Assembly (NCBI GenBank): GCA_963765765.1
Contig: CAVXYC010000023.1
Coordinates: 32,001-96,000 of the forward strand
Direction of reading: 5' to 3'
DNA: 64,000 nt
Source of the DNA: an uncultured Chloroflexia bacterium
Lineage (GTDB): Bacteria; Chloroflexota; UBA6077; JACCZL01
In this document: positions 1 through 29,034 of the stretch, piece by piece
How positions within the stretch are numbered: the stretch's first letter is position 1
Layout of the letters: each line of letters begins with the position of its first letter
The notes under the pieces: generated by a model
The model's database searches: none
What the model was told of the DNA's origin: nothing
Seen by the model: the letters and a program-made list of their open reading frames with translations, nothing else
Position numbers and translations under genes: made by a program

Positions 1-1426
1 GGAGACGATGCGCGCCACATCGCCCGCGCCCGAGCCCAGCTCGGCTTCAGCGCCTCGGCGTCCGGGCCAGGACATACGTGCGCAGGGCTTCGACAAAGGC
101 GAGATACGGCAAGGAGAGCGAGCCCTCCTCGTAGCAATGGCCGACCAGCGTGCGCCCCCACGCACCGCGGCGTAGGTGGCCAATTGCTCGCACAGGGCGG
201 TCTTGCCGATGCCCGGTTCGCCGACCACCATGACCAGCCAGCCCTGACCGGAAGGGCTCGTCAAACGCGGCCTGGAGCTGGCGCAGCTCGCTTCGCGCCC
301 GACGAAGGTCGGCCGGTAGAGTGGGGGCGTCGTCAACCGGCGAAGGCTGCGTGCGGCTGACGGTCGCCGCGCCACGGTCGATAGGTTGATCGCCGCGAGC
401 GCCTGGCAGCACCTCGATTGCCGAGCGGGCGCTTGGCCGGTTCCTTCTCCAGAAGCGCAGAATCAGCGACTCAGTCCCGGCGGACAGTCCGGGCCGATGC
501 CAGGAGGGCGCTACGGGCGGCGTGTTCAAGTGCTGGGTGATGATGGCCACGCTCTCATCGCCCACGAACGGCGGCCGGCCACACACCAGCTCGTAGAGCA
601 CGCAGCCCAGCGCGTAGAGATCGAGCGCGCGTCGACCGACCACCGATGGCCTGCTCCGGGGCCATGTACGAGACGGTGCCGATCATCATCCCCGGCTGGG
701 TATGGCGCGTCTGGTCCAGGGCCACGGCCAGACCGAAGTCGCCGAGCTTGGCCATGCCCTCCGCGGCTCAGCCAGATGTTGCCCGGCTTCAGATCGCGGT
801 GGATCGATGTCTCGGGCATGGGCATGCTCCAGTGCCTGGCACAGCTCCTGTCCAAGATCCAACACCTGCGCGATGGGCAGGCGATGATCGGGCGCGTTTT
901 GAAGAAGGTCGGTCAAGGTCGCCCGCCGGCATCAGCTCAGTGACGAGATAGGGTTGGCCCTGCTCCTCACCGAGGTCCAACACGGCGACGATATTCGGGT
1001 GGGAGCCCAGCCGGCCCATGGCCCGGGCCTCGCGGCGCACGCGCTGCCGGCCGGCTCATCCAGGCCCTCGGTCTTGATCAGGGCCAAGGCGACCTCACGG
1101 TCCAACAGGGTGTCGTGCGCGCGGTAGACCCGCTTCTTGCCGCCCTCGCCCAGCAGCTCCCGCACCTGGTAGCGCCCATTGGCGAAGGTTGGATATTGGC
1201 GTCGCGTGGGGCGGTCCAACGGGAGAGGGCTCGTGCCGCACGGCGGCTGAGACCGACGATCCGAGTGCCCGCTGCGCGGTCAGAGAACTGGCGCGTCCGA
1301 ATTTTCGGGGTCGAGAGCTGGGGCTTCGGCGCGCTCCTTTACCACGGCACCAATCTCGCTGTCGAGTGCCGCATCGGCCTCGTCGAGCAGCGCGTCGATC
1401 TGCCGCTGGATCCGCTCACTGGGCAT
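1..1426 (-). CDS. Kinase-STAND NTPase multidomain protein, copy D (5' part only; runs off the window; frameshifted)
   Basis: ATG at 1426, [20 protein letters not shown]. Fragments across frames read [44 protein letters not shown] (about 200-225) and [14 protein letters not shown], matching copies A-C. Confidence 0.85.
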
Positions 1427-1446
1427 TGTGCATCTCGACTTCCGCA

Positions 1447-4400
1447 TCATGACCAGGCCACGCTAACGCCATGCGTGAGCCGTCGAGGCCCTTGAGCTCT
1501 ACCTGCCGCCCCTCGTCAAACCGCACGTCAGCGCGGCTTTCGGTGAGCTCCTTCAGCAGCGCCGACACCAGAATCTCCCCGCCCCAGTGCCTGGTCCGCG
1601 ATGCGCGCGGCCAGCACCACATCGCGCCCGTGGAAGTCGTCGGCGTCTCGCAGCGCCTCGCCGGTATGCAGGCCCATGCGCACGCGAATTGCCGGCTCCG
1701 AATGGGCTTCGGTCACTGCCCGTTGGATAGCAATCGCGCACTCGAGTGCCCGACGCGCGCTCTGGAATGCCAGCATGAAGCCGTCGCCCTGGCACTTCAC
1801 TTCAAACCCACCGTGCGTCTGCACTTCCTTGCGCACCAGAGCGTGGTGGGTTCGCAGCACATCCAGCCAGCGCTGGTCGCCGAGCTCTAGCGTTAGGCCG
1901 GTGGAATTTTCGATATCGGTGAACAGCAGCGTCACGGTGCCATCGGGTGCGGCGTGCGAGGCGAGGCTCGGCCGCTCCGACTCCAGCACATGGCTGAGTG
2001 CGTCGATCGAGGTGCTCGGGCTGGACTCGGATAGACCCTGGAGCTGCAGCTTTCTACGCAGCGACCGCTCCAGGTAGCTCGTCATCTTCATGTCGCGGAG
2101 CTCACCGATCGCAAAGTCGAGATGGGCCACGCCCTCGGCCTTGAGCTCGTCAGGAGTGAGCGGACGACTGCCGTCCTCGGTTCTGAGAGCTGATGGCCGA
2201 TCGCTGACGGCCTCGTCCAGCAGCAGCTCCGCCAGCTCCAGGCGGCACAGCGCCAGCTCCGGCCGGTGGCGGCCATGCGTGCAGGCAGCGATCCCCTGCT
2301 GGTAATACGCTCGCGCCTTCGCGGGCTGGGCCAGGAGGCGCGCCGCGCCGCCCAGGTCACGGCCCAGGCAGTTGGTGATCGAGGGCTCGGTGAAAAGCAG
2401 ATCGGCCAGGGGCGCCAGCTTCGGCTCGATCATCGCCACGGCCTGCGTGTGGCCCGCGGCCACGGCGGCCTCCAGCAGGTAGCGGAGCAGGGTGGCGGCG
2501 GTGGTGTCGTTCGGGTCGCTCAGGTCCCGCGCGGCCAGGAACTGGTCGATGATCGCGGTGGCTTCGGCGATGCGGCCGGCGTGGGCCAGGTAGATCGCCT
2601 GCTGCGCCGCGAAGGCGCCCCCGGTGGCCCACAGGTTGGCGGGCGTCGGGATGCTAGCCAGGACCTCCGCGGGGCGTCCCAGGTAGAGCAGGGCGCGGCG
2701 GCGGGCGCGGCCCGCGGCCTGCCGACCCAGCCCGGCGCTGCCGGCCTGCTCCCCGAGCCGCTGTGCGGCGTCGGCCAGCTCCAGCGCCCGCCCGAGCGCC
2801 CCGTCCCAGGTGGCCAGGACCGCCCGAAATTCCAGATCCAGGATCCGGGCGGCGGGCTCGTGGCTGCGGGCCGCCGCGGACTCCACGGCGCGCGCGATGG
2901 CTTCGGCGCGTTCGCGGTCCCCCCAGGTCAGGAACGCGCCGCGCCATCCCCCCATCCCGCCCCCAGGGGTCGCGAGGAGGGCGTCCCCCGCGCCCATCCC
3001 GTCTGCCCCATCCTGGCTGAAGCGCAGGTCCCAGATGAGCTGGGCCGCCTCCAGGCGATGGGCGTGCTCCGAGGGGGTGGCGGTGGCGCCGTTAGGCCAC
3101 GTGGCCGGCCGCCGAGAGCTGGGCCTCCCGATCGCCGAGCTCGCGCGCCAGCTCGAACGCCTGCCGCTCCATGCGCCACGATTCGTAATGCCGCCCCGCG
3201 TCCCGCAGTGCCAACGCGAGCCACAGATCCGCGTGCACGCGGTCCACCGTCCCCGGGGCGGCATGCCGATCCGCCCGCTCGACCCACTCCCGGTGGCGCT
3301 CGCTGCCCAGCCCGCGCGGTGACGCCGCCGAACGTCGCCGAGGGCGATCATGGCGAGCTGGCACGCGGCCACGGCCCGGTGCGCGTCGTGCAGCGTCTCG
3401 GCCAGGGCGAAGGCCTCCTCCGCCACGGACGTGAACACCCGCTCCGACTCGCCGGACGGGATCAGCGCCCGACACAGCGCCAGCAGCAGGTCGCAGCGTC
3501 GATCGGCATCGTCGGGATCCAGCACCTCCTGGGCTTCCAGCGCCCGCTCCAGGTGCCGCGCCGCCTCGCCGTAGGCATAGACGCCCATCGCCCGCCGGGC
3601 CGCCAGCTCGCCGTAGCGCACCGCCTTGCCCAGGTCGTCGGGGTCGCTGGAGTTGGCGAAGTGCTCGGCCAGCTCGGCAGCATGCTCGTCCACCCGCCGG
3701 CCGTAGACCCGCTCCAGCGCCCGGCCCACCTGCTGGTGCCAGCGGATGCGCCGCGCGGCGAAGATCTCCTCATAGAGCGTCTGGCGGAAGAAGGCGTGCA
3801 TGAAGCGGAACGCGAGACCCCCGCCGCCGGGGCTCCTGCGCTCCTCGATGATCGCCCGCGCCTGGGCCTCCTCCAGAGCCGCGATCACCGCCTCCTCGGG
3901 CCGGTCGGCCACCTGCTGCAGCGCGTCCAGGCGAAAGTCCCGCCCGATCACGGCCGCGATGGTCAGCACCTGGTTGGTCTCCGGACGCAGCCGGCTCAGG
4001 CGCTTGCCAATCACGTCCCGCAGCCCCTCCGGAATCCCGGCGTCGGCCTCGCCGCCGTCGGCCCGCACCCATTGCCCGCCCTCCCGGACGACGATCCCTT
4101 CCTCGACCAGGTAGCGCAGCACCTCCTGGACGAACAGCGGGTTGCCCTCGGTCTGGCGGTGGATGGCCTCGGCGCGGCCCCAGGGCACCTCCTGGCCGCG
4201 GATCGCCCGCATCATCCGGTGCACCTCGTCCACGGTCAGGCCACGCAGGGCCACACGGGCGAAGGGGGTGGTCCGGCGCAGCTCGGCCAGGGCCGCGCTC
4301 AGCGGGTGGGCGCGGTCCACCTCGACGTCGCGGTAGGTGCCCGACCACCAGCAGGCGGCTGCCCCTCGAGGCTGCGGCTAGACGTGCTGGAGCAGGTCCA

Positions 4401-5993
4401 GCGTGCCGCGATCGGCCCAGTGCAGGTCCTCCAGCACCAGCACCAGCGGCTGCATCGTGGACGCGGTGCGCAGGAAGCCGGTCACCGCCTCCAGCAGGCG
4501 CCAGCGGTCCTCCTCGGCATCGCCGCTCGGCGGGCGCGGCTCCACCGGCGACCCGCTCGCGCACCTCGGAGACGATGCGCGCAACGTCCCCGGCGCCGCT
4601 GCCCAGGGCCGTCGTCAGCGCCTCGGGCTCCTGGCCGAGCACGTAGCCGCGCAGCGCCTCGACGAACGGCAGGTACGGCAGGCTCAAGCGAGCCTTCCTC
4701 GTAGCAGTGGCCCACCAGCGTCGTGCCGCCGCGCACCGCGGCGTAGGTGGCCAGCTGCTCGCACAGGGCGGTCTTGCCGATGCCCGGCTCGCCCACGACC
4801 ATGACCATCCCGCCCTGGCCCGAGAGCGCGGCGTCGTACGCCGGGCTGAGCTGGCGCAGCTCCGCTTCGCGGCCGACGAAGGTCTCGCGGTAGAGCGGGC
4901 CGGGCTCCGATGACCGGCGGGGACTCGGGCTCGGGGGACCCGGTCGCATGACCGCTCCGTGCGGAGTCGATCGCCGGCGAGCGCGATCAGCACCTCGCCG
5001 GCGGAGGCGGGCCGATTGGACGGATCTTTCTCCAGCAGACGCAGGATCAACGTCTCCAGGCCGGTGGGCAATCGGGCCGATGCCAGGTGGGGGCCACCGG
5101 CGGCGTGTTGAGGTGCTGGGTGATGATGGCCACCGATTCGTCGCCCACGAAGGGCGGCCGCCCGCAGACCAGCTCGTACAGCACGCAGCCGAGGGCGTAC
5201 AGATCTGCGCGCGCATCAACGAGACCTCCGATGGCCTGCTCGGGTGCCATGTAGCTGACCGTGCCGATCATCATCCCGGGCTGGGTATGGCGCGTCTGGT
5301 CCAGCGCCACAGCCAGGCCGAAGTCGCCCAGCTTGGCCGTGCCGTCATCCGTGAGCCAGACGTTGCCGGGCTTAAGATCGCGGTGGATGAGGCTTCGTGG
5401 GCGTGGGCGTGCTCCAGCGCCTGACAGAACTGTTCCTAGTACAAGCGCCTGCGCGATCGGCAGGCGATGCTCGGGGCCGCGTCCAGGCAGACTGTGAGGT
5501 CGCCCCCGGCCATGAGCTCGGTGACGAGATACGGCTGGCCGTGCTCCTCGCCGAGGTCGAGGACCGCGACGATGTGCGGATGGGCGCCGAGGCGGCCCAT
5601 GGCCCGGGCTTCCCGGCGCACGCGCTGGCGGCCGGCCTCATCCAGCCCCTCGGTCTTGATCAGGGCGAAGGCGACGTCGCGATCGAGCAACGTGTCATGG
5701 GCGAGATAGACGCGCTTCTTGCCGCCTTCGCCGAGCAGCTCTTGCACCTGATAGCGGCCATTCGCGAACGAGCGTGGGCATGTGCGGCGGCTGTGTGGGA
5801 CAATCTGCGGTCCGATGGAATCCGCTGCTGCGGGCTCGCGCACTGCCGCCGTCAGGAACTCGGGCATCCACTTGCTCGGGTCGAGCCGCGAGGACCGCGT
5901 CGCAGCACTCGGACGCGGCCCAGTCGTGACGATCCAAGGCCGCTCGGCTTCATCGAGCAGAGGTCGATCCGCGCTGAACCGCCCACTGCGCAT
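1447..5993 (-). CDS. Ser/Thr kinase - STAND (AAA_16) NTPase - TPR/helical sensor - class III adenylate cyclase, copy C (frameshifted)
   Basis: Joined from ORFs 5436..5993, 5047..5310, 4482..5219, 4378..4584, 1528..4320 and 1416..1622. Kinase motifs; Walker A GEPGIGKT; Walker B LVLEDLHWAD; GNPLFVQEV; cyclase LLFTDIENST, VKCQGDGFM, RVRMGLHTGE, RDVVLAAR. The stop at 1447 is inferred after correcting a frameshift. Confidence 0.85.
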
Positions 5994-6090
5994 CGGGCTA
6001 GCCGCTTTCTATCCGCCCGATCGCGTCGGAAGACCTGATGTCGCCATCTAGCCCTGGATGGACGCGCTGTACGCCCACTGGCCATTCTCG

Positions 6091-9000
6091 TCAAGTCACA
6101 CGCCTGAAAGACGCCGTGCCGTCGGCGATCCGCGGTGAGCACGCTTCGCGGCCATCATCGAATTGAGCTCGCGCGTCACTCGACCAGGCCGCGCAGCAGC
6201 TCGGAGACGAGGATCTCGCCACCCTGGGCCTGGTCGGCGATGCGCGCGGCCAGGACCACGTCCTGCCGTGGAAGTCGTCGGCTTCTTTCAGCGCTTCGCC
6301 AGTATGCAGTCCGATGCGCACGTCGAATCGGCGAGTCTGGGTATGACGTATTCCCGGCTTCGACGGCCCGCTGAATGGCCACCGCGCAGTCCAGGGCCCG
6401 ACGGGCGCTCTGAAGGCCAGCATGAAGCCATCGCCCTGGCACTTGACCTCGAACCCACTGTGATCTGCACCTGCTCGCGAACGAGCGCGTGATGTGCGCG
6501 CAAGATCTCCAGCCAGCGCTGATCGCCCAGTCGCACGGTTAAGCCGGTGGAGTCTTCGATGTCCGTGAAGAGCAGCGTGACGGTGCCATCGGGCGCGGCG
6601 TGGGGTCTGAAGGTCGGGTCGCTCCGCTGGCGACCGCCAGGCTACCGCGTCGATGGAGGTGCTGGGCGAGACGGAATCGACGCCCTGGAGCTGGAGCTTG
6701 CGGCGGAGGGCCCGTTCCAGCATGGGCTGCATCTTCATCTCGCGCAGCTCGGCGATGGCGAAGTCGAGGTGCTCGAATGGCAGCATTTCGCTCGTCCGGA
6801 TAGTGATCCAGGAGCAGCTCGGCCAGATGGACCTGGATGATGGCGATCTCGGGGCGGAATCGCACCTTTGCACACGCCTCGAGGGCCTGCGTATAGAAGG
6901 AACGCGCGTCATCATACTGACCGAGTTGCGCGGCGGCGTCACCCACCAATCGGCCGATGCTGACATGCATCTCAAACGACCCCACGCGGCTAATCCAAAG
7001 TGAGTTCGAGAGCGGCGCAAATCGAGGCAGGAGCGCGCTCAGGGTTTCCCGGTCGGCACCGAGGATGCTCGCCTGGAGCAAGTACAAGAGAAAGCCTATT
7101 GCAGTTTCGTCGTGGTCTGATCCGATATCACCGAACCGCTCACGATAGGCCCGAGCCTCACTATGTCGAGCCAGCAACGCTAAGATGTGTGCCGTTCTCG
7201 CATTGCTGGCACGCCCCGGCATTTGTTGGTATGCCTCCCGCAATTCTTCGAGGACCGCATTCGGTACCCCGCCCGAGGTACAGGAGTGCCTGGCCGCTCA
7301 TTTCGTGTGGCGTAAACACCCCGACGCCCAGCTCCAGCGCCATCGCGGCGCCTGATTCGTATAGTGTGACCGCCTTTTCGAGACGCCCATCGACGAACGC
7401 CAGGAGGGCGGACGTGGTCAGGGCATGCGCTCGCAAACTTCGATCCTGCGTGTGATCGGCGAGCAGTGTGAGCTCACGCCACAACGTCTCCGCTTGGTGG
7501 CGCCGTCCGCTACTGAGCAGCTCGATACCCCCGGAATAGAGGCACCAGCCCAGGTCAGTCGCCCGAGCACCGTGGTGCGGGCGCCGCAGCACTTCCAGCG
7601 CCAGGCCCGTCACCATCTCACGATCCCGCAAAGCCTGAAGATTCCGAAACGCCCATCCCACGGCGGCGAAGACCACCGAGTCATCATTTAGGCTGAGGGC
7701 GCCTTCCACGGCGCGGCGCAGGAACACGTGCGCCGCCGGGCGGCCGGCACCGATCTCCGCGAGCCCCTGGTAAATATCGGCATAGACGCGTTGGGCGGTC
7801 CTCGTCTGTGCGTGGCGATCAGCACGGTCAGCCCAGTCTTGAAAGCTCTGGGCGGTCGCAGTTCGCAGGCCGGCGCCCGTCGAGCGAATCAAGGATTCCA
7901 ACGCCTGGATAGCCGCGCGGGCGGCGCGGTCTGCGTCGCCGAGCGCTTCGGCCAACGCGAACGCCTCGGGCGCGACCGTGGCACTCACGCGCAGCGGGTC
8001 TTCCAGCGGCAGCATCGCCTCGCCCAGCGCCAGCAGCAGATCGCAGCGCTTCGAATGGTCATCCGGGTCCAGCACCGCCTGGACTTCCAGCGCCTGCTCC
8101 AGGTGCCGGGCCGCCTCGCCGTAGGCGTACACGCTCAGCGCCCGCTGTGCCGCCAGCTCCCCGTACCGAATGGCCTTCTCCAGATCACTCGGCATCCGAG
8201 GAGTGCGCGAAGTGCTCGGCCAACTCCGCCGCGTGCTCTTCCGGTCGCCGCGCGTGGACGTCCTCCAAGGCCCGCGCCACCTGCTGATGCAGCCGGATGC
8301 GCCGCGGCGCGCTCAGCTCCTCGTACAGCGTCTGGCGGAAGAAGGCATGGGTGAAGCGATAGGTCACCGCGCCGGCCGGCCCGCTCGCTCCTCCACCACC
8401 GCCCGATCGCGCGCCTCGTCCAGGGCGCTGTACAGCTCCTCCTCGGGCAGCGCGGCCACGCGCTCCAGCACGTCCAGGCGGAACTCCCGGCCCATCACCG
8501 AGGCCACGCTCAGCACGCGATTGCCCAGCTCGCCCAGGCGTGACAGTCGCTTGCCGATGACATCGCGCAGTCCCTCGGGGATACCGGCCTCGGGATCGCT
8601 GCCATCGGTGCGCACCCACTGCCCGCCCTCGCGCACCACCAGGCCTTCCTCCACCAGGTAGCGCAGCACCTCCTGGACGAACAGCGGGTTGCCCTCGGTC
8701 TGGCGATGGATCGCCTCGGCCCGACTCCAGGGCACCTCCTGTCCGCGGATCAGGTTCATCATCCGATGCACCTCATCCACGGTCAGCCCGCGCAGCGGGA
8801 TGCGGCTGAAGGCGCCGCTGCGCCGCAGCTCGGCCAGCGCCGAGGAGAGCGGGTGGGCGCGATCCACCTCCACGTCCCGATACGTGCCCACGATCAGCAG
8901 TCGCGCCCCGGCCAGGCTGCGGCTCACGTGCTGGAGCAGATCCAGTGTCCCGCGATCGGCCTCGTGCAGGTCTTCCAGGACGATCAGCAGCGGGCGCACC

Positions 9001-10553
9001 TGACTGGCGTTGCGCAGGAAGCCGGTCACCGCCTGCGAGCAAGCGCCAGCGCTCCTCCTCCGGATCGCCCGGGTGGGCGCTCCGGACGGCGATCCGATCG
9101 CGCACTTCGGAGACGATGCGGGCCACGTCCCCGGCGCCGGTGCCGAGATCGCTGGTGAGATCTCCGGATCGCGCGCCAGGACATAGCTGCGCATGGCCTC
9201 GACGAACGGGAGATAGGGCAGGGAGAGCGAGCCTTCCTCGTAGCAGTGGCCCACCAGCGCCGTGCCACCGCGCACCGCGACGTAGGTGGCGAGCTGCTCG
9301 CACAGGCTGGTCTTGCCGATGCCCGGCTCGCCGACGACCATGACCAGGCTGCCCTGCCCGGAGATCGCCCCGTCGAAGGCCGCTTCGAGCTGCTTGCGCT
9401 CGGGCTCGCGGCCCACAAAGGTCGGCCGGTAGAGCGCGGGCTCGATCGACGGAGCGGGAGGCTCGTATCCGAGGCGGTGCACCATTGGCGTCAGGTCAAT
9501 CGCGCTCAGCGCCTGGAGCACTTCGCCGGCCGAGGCGGGCCGTTTCTCGGGATCCTTCTCCAGCAGCCGCAGGATGAGCGCTTCCAGGGCCGGGGGCACA
9601 TCCGGGCGATGCCAGGCGGGGTCGACGGGCGGGGTATTCAGATGCTGGCCGATGATGGCCACGGCTTCGTCGCCGACGAACGGCGGGCGGCCGCAGACCA
9701 GCTCGTAGAGCACGCAGCCCAACGCGTAGAGATCCGACCGTCCATCGACGGCGCCGCCCGTGGCTTGTTCGGGGGCCATGTAGGCCATCGTTCCGACCAT
9801 CATGCCCGGCTGGGTGTGGCGGGTTTGGTCTAATGCCACCGCCAGACCGAAGTCGCCCAGCTTGGCGGTGCCATCGGCGGTCAGCCAGATGTTGCCCGGC
9901 TTGAGGTCGCGGTGAATGACCTGGTGGTCGTGGGCATGCGCCAGCGCCTGGCAAACCTGGCCGGCGATCGTTACGGCTGCTTCAATGGGCAACCGGTGCT
10001 CCGGGGCATCCGCGAGCCGAGTCGCCAGGTCACCACCGGCCACGAGCTGGGAGACGAGATACGGTTGCCCGTCCTGCTCGCCGAGATCGAGCACGGAGAC
10101 GATGTGCGGATGATCGCCGAGGCGGCCCATCGCCCGGGCCTCGCTGCCAATCCGCAGGCCACCGGCGTTATCGAGCCCTTCCGTCTTGATCAGGGCAAAC
10201 GCGACATCGCGGTCGAGCAGGGTGTCATGGGCGAGGTAGACGCGCTTCTTCCCGCCCTCGCCGAGGAGCCTGGCGACCCGGTAACGACCGTTGGCGAAAC
10301 TCGTCGGAGCGGCCGACTTCGGGCCATTGTTTAGGGTCGAGGCGGGCCCATCAAGGGTTGGGGGAGTGGCGGCGTTGGTCGCCAGTGCGCGTTCGGCAGC
10401 CGCCAGGTAGGAGTGCGCATCCGCGCTGTCCGGGTCAAGGGCCAGAACATTCTGGGCCCGATCGCGGACCAAGCCCCAGTTCGACTCGCCAATCCCCGCT
10501 TCCGCTTCGTCGAGCAGCCGATCGATCTGCCGCTGGATGCGCTCACTGGGCAT
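6091..10553 (-). CDS. Ser/Thr kinase - STAND NTPase - TPR/helical sensor - class III adenylate cyclase, copy B (frameshifted)
   Basis: ORF 8364..10562 (ATG at 10553, [18 protein letters not shown]) carries the kinase and NTPase. It continues in 8185..8619, 7161..8195, 6539..7243 and 6091..7020, with cyclase fragments EVKCQGDGFM and IGLHTGEALKEADDFHG. The 3' end is approximate. Confidence 0.88.
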
Positions 10554-10706
10554 GATCACCAACCCTCGAGCGCCGGAAGCTCGGACGCTCCATCACGTAA
10601 CGTGCACGCCGGAGTAGCGCCGGTCGGGATTTCTCGCCTCGCTCGGGCGTGCCTACGCCAGGGGGCATCTTCCCTGTGCTCCGAACGGCTGACGCCGGTC
10701 CGCGCG

Positions 10707-13700
10707 TCATGCCCACTGCACCTGATGTATTTGATAGAGACCGTCCAGGCCTTTCAGCTCGACCTCGCGAACGGCGTCGAATCGGAGATCGCCCCGGCCT
10801 TCGAGCAGGCTCCTGAGCACGGCCGAGACGAGGATCTCGCCACCGCGGGCCTGGTCGGCGATGCGGGCGGCCAGCACCACGTCGCGTCCGTGGAAGTCGT
10901 CCGCGTCCCGCAATGCCTCGCCGGTGTGCAGGCCCATCCGTACGCGGATCGGCACATCGATGTTCTGTGTCGCCACGGAGCGCTGGATCGCCACCGCGCA
11001 GTCCAGCGCTCGGCGCGCGCTATTGAAGGCCAGCATGAAGCCGTCGCCCTGGCACTTGACCTCGAAGCCGCCGTGATGCTGAACTTCTCGGCGGACCAGC
11101 GCGTGGTGGGCACGAAGCAGCTCGAGCCAGCGTTGGTCTCCCAGACGCACGGTGAGATCGGTGGAGCCCTCGATGTCGGTGAACAGGATGGTCACGGTCC
11201 CGTCCGGAGCGGCGTGACGACGGAGGTCGGGCAGCTCCGCATGCAGCGCCCGGGCCACCGCGTCGATGGATGTCCCGGGCGGGACGGTATCGACGCCCTG
11301 GAGCTGGAGCTTGCGGCGCAGCGCCCGCTCGAGAGCGGGCTGCATTTTCATCTCTCGGCATTCATCAATGGCGAAATCCAGGTGCTCCAGCGCCTCGGCC
11401 CGCTCGTCAGGGTACTGGTCCAGGAGCAGCTCGGCCAGCCCCAGGCGGCTTAGAGCAAGCTCAGGGCGACAGCGAACCCGCTCGACACGCCTCAATCGCG
11501 CGACGGTACCAGGCCACAGCTTTTTCAGGTTCGCCCAGCAACGCCGCCGCAGCCCCGAGGTGGCGATGTAGGCAGATGATGCCGGCACCCGCCTCTGCAA
11601 ACGCCGGTCCCTGGTCGAGCTCCGCGGCGAGAACCTCGACCAGCGCGTTGTCTTCGAGCAGAATCGCTGCTTCGAGGCTTCGGGTGAGGTAGGAAACGAG
11701 GTCCGAAGCGAAACGGGGTCTCCCAGACTCCGACAGTTTCGCCCCATCGTGCACCACAAGCTCCTGAAGCTGTCGACGCGCCTGTTCAAGGTCTCCAGCG
11801 AGCGCGTGCGCCAGGGCAAGGGAGAAATTCACCCCGGTTGCCAGCCTCGACCCGCTCAGCCAATCTCGCCATTCAGCGGGACGTCCTAGTAATGGAAGCA
11901 CCGTGCCGCACCGCGCGGCAGCCATTCCGATTCCGACCTGCGGAGAGCCAAGCTCGTGAGCCTGTTCTCGCAGTCGATACCCCAGATCGGCCGCCGCTTC
12001 GAGCCGGCCGTCCAGCGCGGCGACGACCGCCTGGTAACTCAACGCCATGAGCTGAAGCCATGCATCCCGACTCCGGTCGGCCAGCTCCGCAAGCTCACGC
12101 CAGGCTCGCTCCGCGCCATCCCGGTCACCCTTCGTCAGCAGCGCAGCGCCGCAGAACTCCAGGATCTGTCCGTGTGTGCGGACGGATATCCGCTCGCGCG
12201 GGCGCGCCAGCAGCTCATCGGCCAGGGCGACCGCCTCGCGCCACTGCCGCGGTGTCATCTCGAACCGAATCACCTGCCAGGCAGCCGCTGCAAAGAGCTC
12301 CGCGTCCCCCAGATCACGCGCGAGCCCCATCGCCCGGCGGAGCAGGATGACCCCATCCTCGGTGCGCAGCTGAACAATGCGGAGTCGCCCCATCGCCACA
12401 TCGGCGTACGCCCGCTCCGGGCTACCGGCGGCGGCGGTCGCATCCGCCAGCTCGGCCCACTTCTGCCATGCCGGGGCACTGGGCGCCGTCGAGGATAATC
12501 TCCGGTGAATTGCCTCCAGCGCCAGCCGCGACACCCGTCCCACTCGCGTGGTATCACCGTCCTGCTCGGCCAGCGCCAGCGCCTGGGGCGCGATCTCGTC
12601 GCTCACCCGCTGCGGCTCTCCGACCGGCATTAACGCTTCGCCCAATGCCAGGAGCAGATCGTACCGCCTGAGCTTGTCATCCGGGTCCAGTACCGCCTGG
12701 ACATCCAGCGCCTGGTCCAGGTGCCGGGCCGCCTCGCCGTAGGCATAGACGCTCATCGCGCGGCTGGCCGCTAGCTCCCCGTAGTGAATGGCCTTCTGGA
12801 GATCCTCAGGATCCGATGAATGGGCGAAGTGCTCGGCCAGCTCGGGGGCGTGCTCGTCGAGTCGCCGCGCGTGGATTTCCTCCAGTGCCCGTGCCACCTG
12901 CTGGTGCCAGCGGATGCGCCGCGGCGGGCTCAGCTCCTCGTACAGGGTCTGGCGGAAGAAGGCATGCGTAAAATGGTAGGCCACCGCGGCGCCGAGACCC
13001 GTCCGGACCTCCACCACCGCCCGCTCGGTGGCCTCCTCCAGCGCCTCGATCACCGCCTCTTCGGGTAGGCTGCTGACCCGCTGGAGCACGTCCAGACGAA
13101 AGTCCCGGCCGATCACCGCCGCCACGCTGAGCACCTGGTTCGTCGACTCGGACAGCCGTGAGAGCCGCTTGCCGATGACGTCCCGCAGTCCCTCGGGGAT
13201 GTCCTCTCCGGTGCCAATCTGCGGCACATAGCGGTCGCCCTGGCGAACGACCAGGCCGGCTTCCACCAGGTAGCGCAGCACCTCCTGGATGAACAGCGGG
13301 TTGCCCTCCGTTTGTCGGTGGACCGCCTCTGCCTGGGCCCACGAGACCTCATGCCCGCGCAGGACGGTGTACAGCCGATGCACCTCATCGACGGTCAACC
13401 CGCGCAGCGGCACACGCAGGAAGGTCTGGATACGCCGCAGCTCGGCCAGGGTGGAGGACAGCGGATGGCCGCGGTCCACCTCCACGTCGCGGTAGGTTCC
13501 GACCACCAGGAGCCGAGCGCCCTCCAGGTTGCGGGCCAGGTGCACCAACAGGTCCAGCGATCCGTGATCCGCATCGTGCAGGTCTTCCAGCACCAGTAGC
13601 AGCGGTTGGACCAGGGAGGCATTGCGCAGGAAACCTGTCACCGCCTGCAATAGGCGCCAGCGCTGCTCGCCCGGATCGCCGGTATCGGACAGCTCCACCT

Positions 13701-15145
13701 CGACCCGGTCTCGCACCTCACTCACGATTCGAGCCACTTCCCCGGCGCCGGTGCCCAGATCACCCTTGAGCCCTCGGGCTCGCGGGCCAGCACGTAGGAG
13801 CGCATGGCTTCCACGAAGGGCAGATACGGCAGGGAGAGCGAGCCCTCCTCGTAGCAATGGCCGACCAGGCACTTCCCGCCGCGCAGGACGGCGTAGGTGG
13901 CCAATTGCTCGGTTAGGCTGGTCTTGCCGATGCCGGGCTCACCCACGACCATGGCCAGGCCGCCCTGGCCGGAAAGCGCAGCGTCAAAGGCGGCCTGGAG
14001 CTGCTTGAGCTCCGACTTCGCGTCCGACGAAGGCGCGGCGGTAGAGCGGGTTATCCGTCGTCGGTGGCGTCCGGCGCGGGGGCAACGCCTTCCGTTCCCT
14101 GGACCGACGGGGCTGGGGTCGGATCGATCGAGTCCAGCGCCTGGCGCACCTCGGTGGCCGAAGCGGGCCGCTTGCTCGGAACCTTCTCCAGCAGCCGCAG
14201 GATGAGCGCCTCGAGGGCCGCGGGGCAGTCCGGCCGGTGCCAGGACGGGGCCACCGGCGGGGTGTTGAGATGCTGGCCGATGATCGCCACGGCGTCATCG
14301 CCCACGAAGGGCGGTCGGCCGCCGACGAGCTCGTAGAGCACGCAACCGAGAGCGTACAGGTCGCTTTGGGGGCGTGACCTCGGCACCCGTGGCCTGCTCA
14401 GGGGCCATGGCGCTGACCGTGCCGATCATCATCCCCGGCTGGGTGTGGCGCGTCTGATCCAGCGCCACGGCCAGCCCGAAGTCGCCGAGCTTGGCCGTGC
14501 CGTCGTCGGTCGAGCCAGATGTTGCCCGGCTTGAGGTCGCGGTGGATCAGGTCGCGGGCGTGGGCGTGCTCCAGGGCCCGGCAGAGCTGCTGGCCGAGCT
14601 CTAGAACCTGGGGGATCGGCAGGCGATGCTCGGGAGCGGCTGCAGGAGCGTGGTGAGATCTCCACCGGGCATGAGCTCGGTGACCAGATACGGCTGGCCC
14701 TGGTCCTCGCCCAGGTCGAGGACACTCACGATATTCGGATGCGAGCCCAATCGCCCCATGGCGCGGGCCTCGCGGCGGACCCGCTCGCGGCCGACCTGGT
14801 CCAGCCCGTCGGTCTTGATCAGCGCGAACGCGACCTCGCGATCAAGCAGCGTGTCATGCGCCCGGTAGACGCGCTTCTTGCCGCCCTCGCCGAGGAGCTC
14901 GCGCGTCTCATACCGCCCGCCGACAAACGCTCGGGGTGACGTCGCGGCGCTTATCCGGGACGGAGGGTCGCTCGCCAGTCTGGCGAGGCGTTTCAGCCAG
15001 TGACGACGCCGCACGATCCACAGAATCTGGCATGGGGGCTGACACTGCTGCCGCACGATCCGCACACGCGACTCAATGTCGCGCCGCACCCCTCGCAGAA
15101 CGCGGCTTCCTGCGGAGGCTCGGTTCCACAGGCGGCGCAGCGCAT
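10707..15145 (-). CDS. Double zinc ribbon - Ser/Thr kinase - STAND NTPase - TPR/helical sensor - class III adenylate cyclase, copy A (frameshifted)
   Basis: ATG at 15145 after a GAGGA RBS. MRCAACG..FCEGCG..VCGSCG..FCGSCG gives four CxxC. Kinase in 14601..15428 and 14051..14386; Walker A in 13722..13952; NTPase and sensor in 11461..13872; cyclase in 10707..11819 ending YQIHQVQWA*. Confidence 0.88.
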
Positions 15146-15282
15146 GGCTTTCCTCAATGAAGGACGCCTGGTCATCCCGTTGGATGGCTGGAATCCGATA
15201 GTACACCCGATACGGCACGCGCGAAAGTGACACGTGGGCCGAAAAGCGAGGAAGCCCCGGATGCGGGGTGTGCCAGTGCGAC

Positions 15283-15733
15283 TTACGGGCTGAAGGGAGT
15301 GCCTCCGCGGCCGAGGCCCCGAGTGGAGTCAACCATTCCCGGGTGCCAGGCCGGCTGGACGTCGATGTACAGCTCCACGTTGTTGCCGTCGGGATCGTCA
15401 AAGAACGCCGAGTGGGAGACGCCGCCATGATCCACGACTCTGCGTCGGCCGAACGCCTTTGCCTTCGAGGTCCGATAGGGCGTTGCGCAGCTCATCGTCG
15501 GTTGTGCCGATCCGAAAGGCCAGGTGGTTCAATCCGAGTCGTCCGCGCTCGGCATCAGGGCCGACCTCGATCAGCAGCAGCTCATGGTGCGTGCGGCCGG
15601 CTGCGCCAGCCAGGAAAGCCGCGCGGCCCATCTCACCAGTTATGTGCAAACCGAGCCGGTCGCGATAGAAATCAACTGAATCCTCGAGATTGCGCACATT
15701 GAGCACGACGTGTCCGAGCTCTTGAATCTGCAT
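15283..15733 (-). CDS. VOC family (glyoxalase/extradiol dioxygenase-like) protein, frameshifted
   Basis: MQIQELGHVVLNVRNLEDSVDFY..HHELLL..GLNHLAFRI, continuing in 15283..15495 as DHGGVSHSAFFDDPDGNNVELY. Confidence 0.85.
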
Positions 15734-15860
15734 ACTGATCCTTCCTCAATCCAGGGCGACCGCTAGAGCCGCAGCATCCAGAGTTAACAGTCGACAGCCA
15801 GCAGTCTATGATTCGAGCACCGGGCTGGCTCCGACTGTTAACTGTCGACTGTCAAGCTAA

Positions 15861-17039
15861 CTAGTGCTCGTCACCCCACTCGCCGTCCTGCGTCGGCCCG
15901 AGCTCGCCGGTGCAGTACGGCGAGAGCGCGCGCATTCGGCACGGCACACCATGCCGCTTGAGCTCATCCTCAAACAATGGCATGTACGTCCGGGTTCTCG
16001 TCCTCGTACTCCGTCTGGATGCCACCCTGTTTCACGCTGAGATCGGCAGTGTTCCGGTCCGTGGGCATATCGTCCCACCGGCCCGAGACGTAGCGACGAG
16101 ACCTGTTCACACCCACAACCAGGTACGTGGCAGACGATTCCGACACATTAAAGTGCTGGTGGTACCACAGGCCCGGGCCCGCGCCACTCAGGAAGATGCT
16201 GCCCGGGTTTCCAGTCATAACGCACGGCTGGCTCATCATCGCCACGCTGGGTGGTGGTGTAGCCCTCACCGTTCAATATGAACAGGTGCGCGCCCGACGG
16301 GCTGCGGTGGCCCTTCTTGTAGCAGACCGGCCTGGAAACGCGAGATGTGCGAGTTGATCGTGCCGCCGGCCAGCAGGAAGAATGCGTTGGTACCGCCGCC
16401 CCCACGCTCCTTCCACTCCCACAGCTTCATTCGGCGTACATCCGGCTCGAAGTTCGTCTCCCAGAGACGACCCCGCCAGAGCTTTCCCTCTTTCCCAAAG
16501 TAGTCCGATTCACCCGAGTACCGGTCGGTAAAGGCGTAGGGATTGTCGAAGAGGAATCCTTCGTTGTGGAACTGCCGCATCATTGAGGGCAGGTTGGTCA
16601 CCGAGAAGTACCGAACTGGATCCTGGCCACTGCCATTGTGTGACTGGAAATAGGCGTTGGTCGGGATGGCGAAGAAGCTGCCCTCGGACCACTCGAACGT
16701 CTGCTTGGTGTCCTCATCGAACCAGACCGTGGTCGCGCCGCGGCCGCTCAAGATGTAGATCGCCTCATCGTAGATGTGGTGCTCAGGGACGGTGGATTGT
16801 CCTGGTGGGATCTCCACGATATGGATGTCACTGCTATCGTCGCCATCGAGATAGGCGACGGCGCCCTTGACGCCCTTGCGTGGCCAATCCCCTAGCTCCG
16901 CGGCCCGCATATCCGGGATATACACGCCGTCGATGATCGGCACGCCTTCGTTCTTCAGCCAATCATCGTAGGGATCGACCTTTTTCATAAGCGGCGCTTC
17001 GGCCGCGGCACCGGTGTAGGTCAGGGTGTTCACTGCCAT
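15861..17039 (-). CDS. Bicupin protein (gentisate dioxygenase-like cupin superfamily), frameshifted
   Basis: Cupin 1 PEHHIYDEAIYILSGRG..FFAIPTNAYFQSHN. Cupin 2 after a frameshift: YKKGHR..GAHLFILNGEGYT..WYHQHFN. C-terminus GEWGDEH* at 15861. Confidence 0.8.
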
Positions 17040-17530
17040 CTGAGAGCTCCTCATTGTGCAGCTCTGATCCTCGAAGCTATCGAATAAGAAGTCTCCTTTC
17101 CGCCGAAATGCTTGTCGTGTGTGAATGACTCTCATCATTGGTCCAACGCAGGACGCGCGTCAATAGATTGCCCAACCGGTCTCTCTATATGACGCATCAG
17201 GTAGATGCAACTTCGAGTAGTTCGGGAAAACATCATGGGCTTGAGGCGCACCACCATGAACACCATGGCAATCCCGATCGTCCCCACGCTACGACAGCTT
17301 GGATGCGGACACCCCGCACTCATCCTCGTCATGTCCGGGGAGCTCAAGTTCGTGAGAGGGAGCGGAACGTCCTACCTGCTGGTTTCTTTGACGCCGGTGG
17401 GGAGATCCTTCGCTGCACTCAGGATGGCCGGGATACTGGAATTGATCGGTGTGTACCGGCGATGGACGCCGTTGGCCGGCATTCATGGACCATAAGCGCG
17501 GCAAAGACGCACACGCGGTGTAGAGGGCAA

Positions 17531-27786: not shown

Positions 27787-29034
27787 CTACTGCGGAATCG
27801 TGATCTCCCCGCCCGTCTGTCCGTTCTGCTTACTCTCCCATTCTTTGATGGCGGCGTTAACTTTGGACTCGAATTCCGCCAACGGAATTCCGTCCGTCAG
27901 CTTCTGGAAGATGTCACCATTGTTGAGCTCAGCACCGAGCACCGTCTGAGCGGGACTCGCGACCACGATTGGACCAAACTTCCCTCCGCCAATGACCTCG
28001 CCCTTGAGTAGGTCCGGCACGTAGCTGGGAACGTCGCGTCGTGGCCCGTCGTCGCTGCCCTTGAGCTTCTTGATGAACTCCTGCCCTTCACGACTCGACA
28101 TCCAGTTGATAAAGACCATCCCGGCATTCGGACGCTGCCCGGTCTTGAGCACGCCCATCATCTGTGGAAAGCCCACGATGGGCGTATCAGCAAACGCCAG
28201 GATCTTGATCGGCGCGCCCGCTTCAGCAATGCTGCCCAGCCGATCGCTGCCCGAGCCAATGGCTATCCAGGCTTCGCCGCGCGCCACAGCGGCTTCCTGA
28301 TCCCCCGGCCGAGCAAAGAGCATGGATTCCTGCCTGGCATATAAGGACCAGACATCCTCGAGCGTCATCGTCTTCGAGATGTAGCCCTGCTTGACGAAGT
28401 GCGCGGCGACATTACCGGTCGTCTTGGGATCGTTGAAGGCGATTCTGCCCTTGTACTTCGGATTGGTGGCCAGATCGTGATAGCTGGTCGGGTAGTCGGC
28501 GGGCTTCAGCAGGTTGGTGTTGATGGTCAGGTGTCCGTCTGCCTTGGTCGGGCGGCTGACCACCACGTCCACCATGTCGCCCATGAAGGTGGGCGGCGTC
28601 CGCCAGGCATCTGGCGGGTCGTTGAGGATCGGCATCGGCTGGTCTTTGAGGGGGACGAACCCGCCTTCCCGCCGAAGGTCCGACAGGAACTGCGGCGAGC
28701 CTTCAATCACGTCGGCAGATGGAACGCCGCCCTTGGTCTCCGTGTAGTAGCGCTGAACCAGCACGGCACCGTTGCCCGTAATGAAGTCGACAGGAATTCC
28801 GCTCACCCGCTTGAACTCTTCCGCGATGGTGGTTGCCTCGGTGCCGGTGAACCATTGGGCGTAGACCAGCAGCGTTCCCTCGGTTTTGGCCTTGTCCACA
28901 ATTGCCTGCCAGCCGGTGCTGCTCGGCGCCGCCCCGGACTGGGAGCTGCTTGGAGCGGCGGGTCCGCCCATGCAGGCGGTGGACAGGAGCACCGCGATCA
29001 CGCCGAAGCTGAGACTCGAACGAAGCGTGCGCAT
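27787..29034 (-). CDS. ABC substrate-binding lipoprotein (iron/thiamine/polyamine-type)
   Basis: Lipobox STAC; WQAIVDKAKTEGTLLVY; PTSYHDLATNPKYKG; PNAGMVFINWM. Confidence 0.85.
   Translation of the reverse strand: MRTLRSSLSFGVIAVLLSTACMGGPAAPSSSQSGAAPSSTGWQAIVDKAKTEGTLLVYAQWFTGTEATTIAEEFKRVSGIPVDFITGNGAVLVQRYYTETKGGVPSADVIEGSPQFLSDLRREGGFVPLKDQPMPILNDPPDAWRTPPTFMGDMVDVVVSRPTKADGHLTINTNLLKPADYPTSYHDLATNPKYKGRIAFNDPKTTGNVAAHFVKQGYISKTMTLEDVWSLYARQESMLFARPGDQEAAVARGEAWIAIGSGSDRLGSIAEAGAPIKILAFADTPIVGFPQMMGVLKTGQRPNAGMVFINWMSSREGQEFIKKLKGSDDGPRRDVPSYVPDLLKGEVIGGGKFGPIVVASPAQTVLGAELNNGDIFQKLTDGIPLAEFESKVNAAIKEWESKQNGQTGGEITIPQ

Follow-up and report, generated by a model that had tools for sequence, protein, structure and literature searches.

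The question raised by this locus is whether kinase domains whose beta3 lysine is replaced by alanine, and whose glycine-rich loop (G-loop) carries a lysine at its third glycine, can still be active kinases. The window, i.e., the whole 64,000-nucleotide stretch that was analysed, contains four such genes in tandem, each ~4.5 kb in size and all on the minus strand. The likeness among these four copies is a matter of paralogy and not of chance. Paralog 1 continues past the left edge of the window, to about position 29031 of the contig (C23:29031), and two more copies are found at the start of another contig (C20), bringing the total in this genome to six. The features used below are the following:

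10707-15145, minus strand: paralog 4, double zinc ribbon - kinase - AAA_16 - TPR - class III cyclase (start MRCAACG at 15145, last residue at 10710, stop codon 10709-10707)
15008-15157, minus strand: double zinc-ribbon N-terminus of paralog 4, with four CxxC pairs
14814-14894, minus strand: G-loop to beta3 segment of paralog 4, 27 residues (motif scan)
10713-11258, minus strand: class III nucleotidyl cyclase domain of paralog 4, closest solved chain Ma1120 (4wp3, E 5.1e-44)
6094-10553, minus strand: paralog 3 (start MPSERIQ at 10553, 3' end approximate)
10562-8367, minus strand: kinase-bearing open frame P0001 of paralog 3, 732 aa
9516-10283, minus strand: Pkinase domain of paralog 3 (PF00069, residues 94-349 of P0001, 158.1 bits against a cut-off of 31.7)
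10185-10265, minus strand: G-loop to beta3 segment of paralog 3 (six-frame regex and motif scan)
10247-10245, 10196-10194 and 10187-10185, minus strand: codons of paralog 3 for the loop Lys K22, the Ala A39 and the ALIK Lys K42, respectively (numbering of the modelled domain)
8889-9422, minus strand: AAA_16 STAND ATPase of paralog 3 (PF13191, residues 381-558, 100.5 bits against 32.6)
9332-9309, minus strand: Walker A motif GEPGIGKT of paralog 3
1416-6010, minus strand: paralog 2, kinase - AAA_16 - TPR - cyclase (5' end approximate)
5655-5735, minus strand: G-loop to beta3 segment of paralog 2 (motif scan)
1-1426, minus strand: paralog 1, 5' part only (start MPSERIQ at 1426)
1073-1153, minus strand: G-loop to beta3 segment of paralog 1, VALALIK variant

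A six-frame regex search and a motif scan of the window identified exactly four occurrences, all on the minus strand, of the 27-residue segment that ends in [LR]AHDTLLDR[DE]VA[FL]ALIK (in short form, the four N-lobes end in [FL]ALIK). A second, 19-letter motif and MAPEQA were also found four times each by the motif scan. The four kinase segments and the coordinates given in an earlier note, made from the DNA letters, were thereby reproduced. A phmmer comparison with PDB chains pairs the segment with StkP and PknB in a gap-free alignment. The Lys of VAVK is matched there by the Ala of VAFA, and the beta3 VAIK lysine site (subdomain II) is Ala in 4/4 window copies. The second Lys of GEGGKK takes the third-glycine position of the G-loop, and the ALIK Lys lies opposite the Arg of VAVKVLR in StkP. 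The exchange of the two positions that the earlier note had proposed is thus upheld by the alignment to solved kinases. The alphaC Glu, HRD Asp, catalytic Asn, DFG Asp and APE are present in all four copies, as had also been claimed for the alphaC Glu and APE; they are, however, in a single reading frame only in the copy starting at 10553. A register shift bringing the ALIK Lys to the canonical beta3 site had been named as one of the findings that would overturn the proposal, and none was found, since the spacing between the G-loop and 'VA' is canonical.

The arrangement is not restricted to this genome. An alignment was made of 358 kinase domains from 267 proteins, sampled as the top matches to a loop-Lys query. 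In 189 of the 358, Lys at the third-Gly site is combined with a small beta3 residue, namely Ala in 175, Ser in 13 and Gly in 1. The third-Gly Lys is found in none of the 169 remaining domains, and no domain among the 358 aligned has Lys at both sites. Within the loop-Lys set, the HRD Asp, the catalytic Asn and the DFG Asp are present in all 189 domains, the alphaC Glu in 188 and the HRDxK Lys in 186. The first Lys of the KK pair varies (K in 133, R in 37, another residue in 19), while the second is invariant, indicating a constraint on one specific lysine. In a 60-sequence alignment, the activation-loop residues R164, T166 and T174 are at least 90% conserved, and P180 and E181 of the APE motif are invariant; the RD arginine, the activation-loop Thr and the APE motif are retained in the family. 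Constraints specific to the family concentrate at the pocket-lining sites K22, A39, W142 and G152. The position two residues after the catalytic Asn is Trp, compared with Leu or Met in canonical kinases, and a Gly precedes DFG. A G-loop Met, present in 102 of the 149 canonical domains, is replaced in the family by Lys, Arg or polar residues. Because the swap arose only once in the sampled tree, the 189-to-149 split represents one event and not a replicated covariation.

An AlphaFold2 model of the kinase domain was obtained with high confidence (pLDDT 90.7, pTM 0.89). Foldseek comparison of the fold with PknB, PknA and Stk1 gave TM scores of 0.81-0.90 at 34-40% identity. According to DSSP, strand beta2 of the model spans residues 22-29 and beta3 residues 34-41. 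K22, the loop Lys, is the first residue of beta2, and K42, the ALIK Lys, lies just beyond the end of beta3. By hairpin pairing, K22 is predicted on the sheet face of V24 and A39, with K42 on the opposite face; this argument combines the DSSP assignments with generic geometry. Complex predictions with two kinase copies, ATP and Mg reached 0.23 and 0.17 compared with a mark of 0.42 and contained no contacts, and carry weight neither way.

This lysine swap has a known counterpart in eukaryotes. As described in the cited parts of PMC1821047, PMC10211241 and PMC12599244, the beta3 VAIK Lys of WNK kinases is replaced by a small residue, and the third glycine of the G-loop, where beta2 begins, is a Lys. 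The beta2 lysines of WNK and of POMK (protein O-mannose kinase, SGK196) are needed for catalysis (PMC10211241, PMC13519141 and PMC1821047, cited in part). Compared with the published descriptions of WNK and the WNK motif quoted in the earlier note, the bacterial family likewise combines the third-Gly Lys with loss of the beta3 Lys and keeps the alphaC Glu, HRD and the metal-binding Asp. Its third-Gly position corresponds to WNK1 K233 and to position 55 of PKA (PMC1821047, in the part cited), and its small beta3 residue is Ala, Ser or Gly. Unlike WNK, its nearest solved chains are StkP and PknB, and no WNK-type accessory domains were found with Pfam. POMK also has its lysine moved to beta2, where it is required for activity (PMC10211241 and PMC13519141, cited in part). 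POMK, however, has no canonical HRD, DFG or alphaC Glu and phosphorylates a sugar, whereas the bacterial family keeps all three elements. In the choline/aminoglycoside-type CAK-chloro kinases, the positive charge has moved from position 72 to 55 (Kannan et al. 2007, PMC1821047, in the part cited). These kinases act on small molecules and have Met at 72, Arg at 55 and a Phe where the alphaC Glu would be, whereas the family studied here is of the Hanks protein-kinase type, with Lys at 55 and the alphaC Glu kept. PknB, StkP and Stk1 share its fold, its RD-type catalytic loop and its activation-loop threonines and are its best sequence matches (E 1e-57 to 1e-45). What sets these canonical kinases apart from the family is the presence of the beta3 Lys and of the G-loop Met, together with a third G-loop residue that is Gly, Ala or Ser.

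The closest PDB matches found by phmmer are StkP (1.1e-57) and PknB (5.8e-52). The best eukaryotic match, Nek7, follows far behind (3e-29), and no WNK chain is among the best 60 matches. In the tree, the 190 loop-Lys domains group together as a single clade within the bacterial kinases, with an SH-like support of 0.99. Because the nearest solved relatives are bacterial and the family is one clade among bacterial kinases, the sequence comparisons support convergence with WNK, as the earlier note had argued, and not descent from the eukaryotic WNK clade. The idea of chloride or osmotic sensing by analogy with WNK found no support; the copies have DFG. Hundreds of relatives carry the swap, mostly labelled Chloroflexota, and in 33 of 80 loci of other genomes an open frame of 1,200 aa or more carries the motif. 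HLF07967.1 and MCI0859064.1 are examples of intact members. Only four sequencing runs, from soil or rhizosphere, were found to contain 0.05-0.06 of the words, and no claim about habitat or the indels is drawn from them.

The kinase is one part of a much larger protein, predicted to be ~1,450-1,500 residues long. The family order is (zinc ribbon)-kinase-AAA_16 STAND ATPase-TPR-(class III cyclase). A matching ATPase region follows the kinase in 156 of the 156 family members that are 1,200 aa or longer, and a double zinc ribbon is present in 44 of these 156. The Walker A motif GEPGIGKT is found in 4/4 window copies. The TPR region, putatively MalT-like, reached only 27.8 with the TPR_MalT profile, against a cut-off of 45. 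A C-terminal class III cyclase is found in about a third of the relatives and in all window copies, scoring 42.4 bits with PF00211 (cut-off 21.9). FTDIE.ST and GDGFM are conserved between the window cyclase and Ma1120, so that the two metal-binding Asp are in place. The Asn of GRNVAMAAR in Ma1120, which we take to be the catalytic Asn, corresponds to an Asp in the window cyclase. In the NCBIfam search, every match remained under its cut-off. PADLOC matched only the kinase domain, with generic kinase models (PD-T4-6, mad6 and PglW), and is thus uninformative about a defence system. ORF all-against-all clustering of 41 loci of at least 8 kb, a crude comparison made without profile annotation, returned as conserved neighbours only the kinase gene, overlapping spurious frames and tandem paralogs.

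Related architectures have been described. Proteins of the CP1 group (O'Boyle et al. 2025) also have a cytoplasmic kinase N-terminal to a predicted STAND-type ATPase (COG3899), and 34% of them have no VAIK Lys (PMC12599244 and 10.1101/2025.01.12.632604, cited in part). Unlike the present family, the CP1 proteins are reported from cyanobacteria and proteobacteria, have lost the HRD Asp in 37% and the DFG Asp in 17% of cases, and have FhlA/GAF or PAS partners (PMC12599244, same part). The cited part of the CP1 description makes no mention of a loop lysine, and the two groups are compared here by description only (PMC12599244). The TOMM kinase/cyclase fusion (TIGR03903) likewise joins a kinase, a STAND-like region and a cyclase homology domain; however, three full-length relatives scored only 285-308 bits where 705.75 are required, most of the match being to the ATPase region. 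Kinase-STAND proteins of the M. tuberculosis PknK type also combine a kinase with a STAND-like region, and one family member is named PknK by NCBI. M. tuberculosis PknK itself has the canonical lysine.

Taken from sequence and model, the family probably represents active Ser/Thr kinases whose lysine has moved to beta2, an arrangement reached by convergence with WNK and POMK. Each gene would encode a self-contained cytoplasmic signalling protein with a PknB-like Hanks-type Ser/Thr kinase. Its ATP-anchoring lysine would come not from beta3, but from the first residue of beta2, at the third Gly of GxGxxG (PKA G55, WNK1 K233). The small beta3 residue (Ala, Ser or Gly) would leave space for the side chain of the relocated lysine, which may reach into the active site and, in the manner of WNK1, pair with the ATP phosphates and the retained alphaC glutamate. 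The swap would have been accompanied by changes in the pocket, i.e., the Trp at catalytic Asn +2, the Gly before DFG and the loss of the G-loop Met. It is assumed that the TPR, STAND, kinase and cyclase parts form one signalling chain: binding of a ligand at the TPR region would lead to STAND oligomerisation. The oligomer would pair the cyclase domains and hold the kinase domains close enough to each other to trans-autophosphorylate the conserved activation-loop Thr. Several points count against active kinases. The ALIK Lys is also highly conserved, for which this reading offers no explanation, the VAIK Lys is absent, CP1 proteins with a kinase plus COG3899 include many presumed pseudokinases (PMC12599244, in the part cited), and three of the four kinase domains of this assembly are frame-broken.

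It is unlikely, but deserves consideration, that these domains are nucleotide-binding pseudokinases, in which the loop Lys binds ATP or another ligand without phosphotransfer and the domain exerts allosteric or scaffolding control over the STAND ATPase and the cyclase. Under the sequence-based definition (VAIK Lys, HRD Asp or DFG Asp absent), they would formally be classed as pseudokinases, the VAIK Lys being absent. As for WNK, this definition does not decide activity. The missing canonical beta3 Lys, in 189 of 189 loop-Lys domains, is compatible with a pseudokinase, as is the presence of two other nucleotide-using domains in the protein, AAA_16 and the cyclase. CP1 kinase-COG3899 fusions are often without catalytic residues, and several bacterial families without the VAIK Lys have been modelled as ATP binders (both in the cited parts of PMC12599244 and 10.1101/2025.01.12.632604). 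On the other hand, residues that serve phosphotransfer and its regulation alone (HRD Asp, catalytic Asn, DFG Asp and HRDxK Lys) are near-universal in the counts given above, and the RD arginine, the activation-loop Thr and APE are kept as well. Scattered catalytic losses, as expected of pseudokinases, are seen in the 20 degenerate domains of the sample; there are none in the loop-Lys clade.

A second alternative concerns only the source genome, whose six copies might be decaying pseudogenes, a dead array, even though the family functions elsewhere. We judge this rather improbable. All four 4.5-kb genes of the window contain many single-base frameshifts: about 9 frame switches in paralog 4, about 8 in paralog 2, about 11 in paralog 3, all downstream of its kinase, and about 12 within the 1.4 kb of paralog 1. 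In the copy at 10265, the inter-motif distances (123, 228, 60 and 75 nt) are all in frame, and it is the only such copy of the four; the frame changes inside the kinase domain in the other three (e.g., 227 and 61 nt in the copy at 14894). The earlier note made no mention of frameshifts, and three of its four kinase domains are frame-broken. Decay would account for about 8-12 frame switches per 4.5-kb gene and for a single window kinase domain of four in one frame. The array is moreover a GC-rich island (0.68-0.72 compared with 0.612 for the genome), in a lineage where most relatives do not have the family. However, the single-base indels sit at different places in each copy and look like assembly errors, and third codon positions predominate among the substitutions that separate the copies (e.g., 53, 35 and 129). 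When the indel codons are skipped, 5 of the 6 copies give complete conserved kinase domains with no in-frame stop. The unrelated neighbouring genes for a glyoxalase and a cupin are also frame-broken, whereas long intact frames run through the remaining 47 kb of the window, which indicates errors of the local consensus. Frames of this gene family are shortened in a similar way in several long-contig assemblies from other genomes. Programmed frameshifting and an alternative genetic code were rejected, because the indel places differ between the paralogs and are non-homologous.

It is highly improbable that the lysine that binds ATP is the ALIK Lys, at the canonical site +3, brought into place by a beta-bulge or a local shift of register, with the loop Lys otherwise employed: a basic residue is found there in 187 of the 189 family domains (K 178, R 9) compared with 46 of 149 canonical ones (R 34, K 12), but Arg, Ser and Gln are tolerated (11/189) while the loop Lys is never replaced, the aligned StkP Arg occupies a site where ordinary active kinases often have a basic residue, the conserved V36-A37 hold the canonical G-loop spacing, and in the model this Lys follows the end of beta3 on the face opposite A37 and A39.

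A literature search covering the main text of open-access papers returned no description of a bacterial WNK-like kinase family, in agreement with the earlier note, which knew of none. We lean slightly towards the view that, within the protein-kinase fold, the catalytic lysine has here moved to beta2 independently for a third time, WNK and POMK being the other two cases, and that this is the first such case among bacterial Hanks-type protein kinases. The relocation would have become fixed in a large, multi-copy Chloroflexota family of STAND-coupled kinases and kinase-cyclases and co-evolved with a remodelled pocket (Trp at an adenine-contacting catalytic-loop position, Gly before DFG). The enzymes would be active, and the lysine may, as in WNK, confer sensitivity to a small ligand or ion in the active site.

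If this is true, sequence-based screens would mislabel these active enzymes as pseudokinases, and kinome surveys that count VAIK-lysine-less proteins as such would have to be corrected. The same solution in a bacterial family would demonstrate that the relocation route, for which Kannan et al. provide the background, is repeatedly accessible to evolution. The family would also offer a simple, bacterially expressible system in which lysine relocation can be tested by swap mutants. Since the family is large in uncultured members and combines three nucleotide-using domains in each chain, it would provide an entry point into the signalling of the poorly studied phylum Chloroflexota.

The kinase genes of the window are four paralogs of ~4.5 kb each, arranged head-to-tail. 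A six-frame scan for [10 protein letters not shown][LR]AHDTLLDR[DE]VA[FL]ALIK, the segment from the glycine-rich loop (G-loop) to strand beta3, gave four occurrences, all on the minus strand and at the positions reported in the earlier note. A motif scan of the window found four copies each of [19 protein letters not shown] and MAPEQA at offsets matching the segment. The features are as follows:

15145 to 10707, minus strand: paralog 4, tandem kinase gene
10553 to ~6094, minus strand: paralog 3, tandem kinase gene
~6010 to 1416, minus strand: paralog 2, tandem kinase gene
1426 to past the window's left edge, minus strand: paralog 1, tandem kinase gene
14894-14814, 10265-10185, 5735-5655 and 1153-1073, minus strand: copies of the G-loop to beta3 segment
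10713-11258, with equivalents near 6179-6640 and 1461-1990: predicted cyclase domain, ~50% identical to the solved Ma1120 cyclase
15745-15286: glyoxalase, unrelated neighbour, frame-broken
17159-15973: cupin, unrelated neighbour, frame-broken

Open pieces of the kinase genes match the Pfam families Pkinase (158.1 bits, cut-off 31.7), AAA_16 (100.5 bits, cut-off 32.6) and Guanylate_cyc (42.4 bits, cut-off 21.9), and weakly a MalT-type TPR (27.8 bits, cut-off 45); a double zinc ribbon forms the N-terminus of paralog 4. Two more copies are found at the start of a second contig of the same genome (C20). Few other Hanks-type kinase loci were detected in this genome, and two of them carry a canonical VAIK. 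The start codon of paralog 1 (MPSERIQ, 1426) is located ~10 nt ahead of the apparent paralog 2 stop (1418-1416), so that the tandem genes abut or overlap; an indel may affect the tail of paralog 2.

Alignment of the kinase domain by phmmer to the PDB sequences of StkP (1.1e-57) and PknB (5.8e-52) is gap-free. The Ala of VAFA stands opposite the catalytic Lys of VAVK and the ALIK Lys opposite the Arg of VAVKVLR, which confirms the earlier reading of Ala at the beta3 Lys site and Lys at the third G-loop Gly. This second Lys of GEGGKK (the loop Lys) takes the place of the third Gly in GxGxxG; 143 of the 149 canonical domains have Gly, Ala or Ser there. According to Kannan et al. 2007 (PMC1821047), the WNK lysine is PKA 55, the same position. 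The likeness to WNK draws, on the WNK side, on that paper, on two reviews (PMC10211241 and PMC13519141) and on the motif in the earlier note.

A word-indexed search of longer proteins listed at least 120 relatives (54-76% identity). Their source MAGs are labelled Chloroflexota or Dehalococcoidia, and their own annotations go no further than "protein kinase", "PknK", "AAA family ATPase", "class 3 adenylate cyclase" or "TPR repeat protein". An exhaustive HMMER search over 1.84 billion representatives added 147 proteins. In total, 358 kinase domains from 267 proteins, a sample biased toward hits of the loop-Lys query, were aligned to the window domain. The loop-Lys class (189 domains in 188 proteins) has Lys at the third-Gly site and Ala (175), Ser (13) or Gly (1) at the beta3 site. 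The canonical class (149 domains) has Lys at beta3 only, 20 domains have it at neither site, and none of the 358 has it at both. All 120 listed word-search relatives, and 68 of the 147 proteins unique to HMMER, are of the loop-Lys type. With FastTree, 190 loop-Lys domains were split from 173 others (149 canonical, 20 "neither" and four further kinases of the window's genome) by one branch (SH-like support 0.99, length 0.39), pointing to a single origin of the lysine swap within this sample. The proposed co-variation of the two sites therefore holds as strict co-occurrence (189 vs. 149, none with both), but would represent one event followed by strict maintenance rather than repeated covariation. 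The most divergent member seen, P0002 (3024 aa), has two kinase domains of the loop-Lys type on a single chain (GEGAYK and GEGAFK; 47% and 55% identity), together with GAF and AAA domains.

The remaining catalytic residues, described as intact in the window copies, are kept throughout the loop-Lys class: the alphaC Glu in 188/189 domains, the HRD Asp, catalytic Asn and DFG Asp in 189/189 each, and the HRDxK Lys in 186/189. The constraint falls on a single lysine, as the first Lys of "KK" varies (K 133, R 37, others 19). From the demonstrated sequence arrangement, conservation, fold and architecture, we infer catalysis and the signalling logic: the protein is probably an active RD-type Ser/Thr kinase taking its ATP-anchoring lysine from beta2, like WNK and POMK. 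That a domain with no beta3 Lys serves instead as a regulatory module, binding ATP without catalysis, seems unlikely beside these counts; scattered losses typical of pseudokinases occur in the 20 "neither" domains and nowhere in the loop-Lys clade. Chloride or osmotic sensing by the window kinases, raised earlier as a speculation, finds nothing in its support.

All four paralogs are broken by frameshifts, with ~8-12 frame switches per gene (ungapped tblastn, seven full-length relatives). The earlier reading of four kinase domains holds for the motifs, present in all four, but a single reading frame exists only in the copy at 10553, where the motif spacing is in frame and the kinase lies within a ~732-742-codon open frame. 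The breaks are single-base indels at sites differing from copy to copy, and inter-copy substitutions fall mostly at the third codon position (e.g., 53, 35 and 129). When indel codons are skipped, five of the six copies give a complete conserved kinase domain without stops. The unrelated glyoxalase and cupin are broken as well, and long intact frames fill the other 47 kb of the window. Local errors in the consensus, rather than old pseudogenes, are consequently the preferred reading of the indels; that the copies are real pseudogenes, in this genome only, is judged improbable. A run search found no sequencing run holding the array region. Single-base frameshifts are limited to 1-17159, in contrast to intact ORFs at 17200-64000; the first 10 kb of contig C20 is affected likewise.

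AlphaFold2 with a 60-sequence family alignment gave a confident kinase fold for the paralog 3 domain (mean pLDDT 90.7, pTM 0.89), which Foldseek grouped with PknB, PknA and Stk1 (TM 0.81-0.90, 34-40% identity). In the model (strands 10-18, 22-29 and 34-41; helix C 48-63), beta2 begins with the loop Lys, K22; the beta3-site Ala, A39, is mid-strand and the ALIK Lys, K42, is just beyond that strand. A hairpin with its turn at 30-33 would pair V24 with A39 and K22 with I41; by DSSP and ordinary sheet geometry, K22 would thus lie on the ATP-facing side with V24, A37 and A39, and K42 on the other face. The ALIK position is itself well conserved (K 178, R 9, S 1, Q 1), yet a catalytic role for this Lys is very hard to credit.

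Residues under family-specific constraint (85% or more in the family but 15% or less in canonical domains) include K22, A39, K42, M61, W142 (two residues past the catalytic Asn) and G152 (preceding DFG). Several line the nucleotide pocket, which fits a remodelled, working ATP site better than decay. In the paralog 3 kinase (9500-10310, minus strand), the invariant family-specific residues beyond the swap are at 42, 61, 142, 152 and 233-234: the ALIK Lys, a Met four after the alphaC Glu, the Trp, the Gly and a C-lobe Trp-His pair. In place of the bacterial G-loop Met, the family has Lys, Arg or polar residues.

Consistent with the earlier note, which knew of no bacterial WNK-type family, full-text searches of openly accessible papers turned up no account of bacterial Hanks-type kinases whose lysine sits in the G-loop or beta2, though a prior mention elsewhere is possible. 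The 2025 bacterial Ser/Thr kinase atlas (10.1101/2025.01.12.632604) and its companion review (PMC12599244) describe seven families without the VAIK Lys (ActPs1, ActPs2, ActPs3, GLW, CP1, DYD and DLHK) and cite WNK solely as a eukaryotic analogy. As described there, CP1 shares the kinase-COG3899 architecture but differs in its reported phyla and in having also lost HRD and DFG residues.

Of 599 pattern matches in GTDB species genomes, 346 encode a relative. The motif is present at 79 of the best 80 loci, at 33 of them within an open frame of 1,200 aa or more; 70 of the 80 have a Chloroflexota-type label. The other ten are labelled Deltaproteobacteria RBG_13_43_22 (3), Thermodesulfobacteriota (2), Binatia (2), Acidimicrobiia (1), Planctomycetota (1) and "bacterium" (1). 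The nine with a named group (L005, L035, L058, L027, L053, L050, L070, L018 and L062) are on MAG contigs, and one non-Chloroflexota-labelled contig spans 295 kb with three tandem copies. Such labels could reflect inter-phylum transfer, mislabelling or binning error. Tandem copies recur in L005, L035, L053 and L074, and a crude comparison of 41 loci revealed no conserved neighbour gene. Using a 78-residue N-lobe (E <=1e-20), the family was detected in 4/21 close relatives, the window's own genome included, and in 6/401 genomes sampled across the phylum, with 1-8 matches per genome where present. This patchiness is consistent with horizontal acquisition, as is the GC-rich island formed by the array (1-15145), whose genes are at 0.68-0.72 compared with 0.612 genome-wide and 0.616 in the rest of the window.

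In all 156 loop-Lys proteins with a length of 1,200 aa or more, the kinase is followed by an AAA_16-type region; 55 end in a C-terminal cyclase and 44 start with a zinc ribbon. The cyclase is nearest to Ma1120 (E 5.1e-44). In the window copies of this predicted cyclase, the Asn of Ma1120 "GRNVAMAAR" aligns with Asp ("GRDVVLAAR"). The kinase is part of a STAND-type signalling protein, in which the TPR region would sense a ligand and the NTPase would then drive oligomerisation, joining kinase domains for activation-loop phosphorylation and also pairing the cyclase domains.
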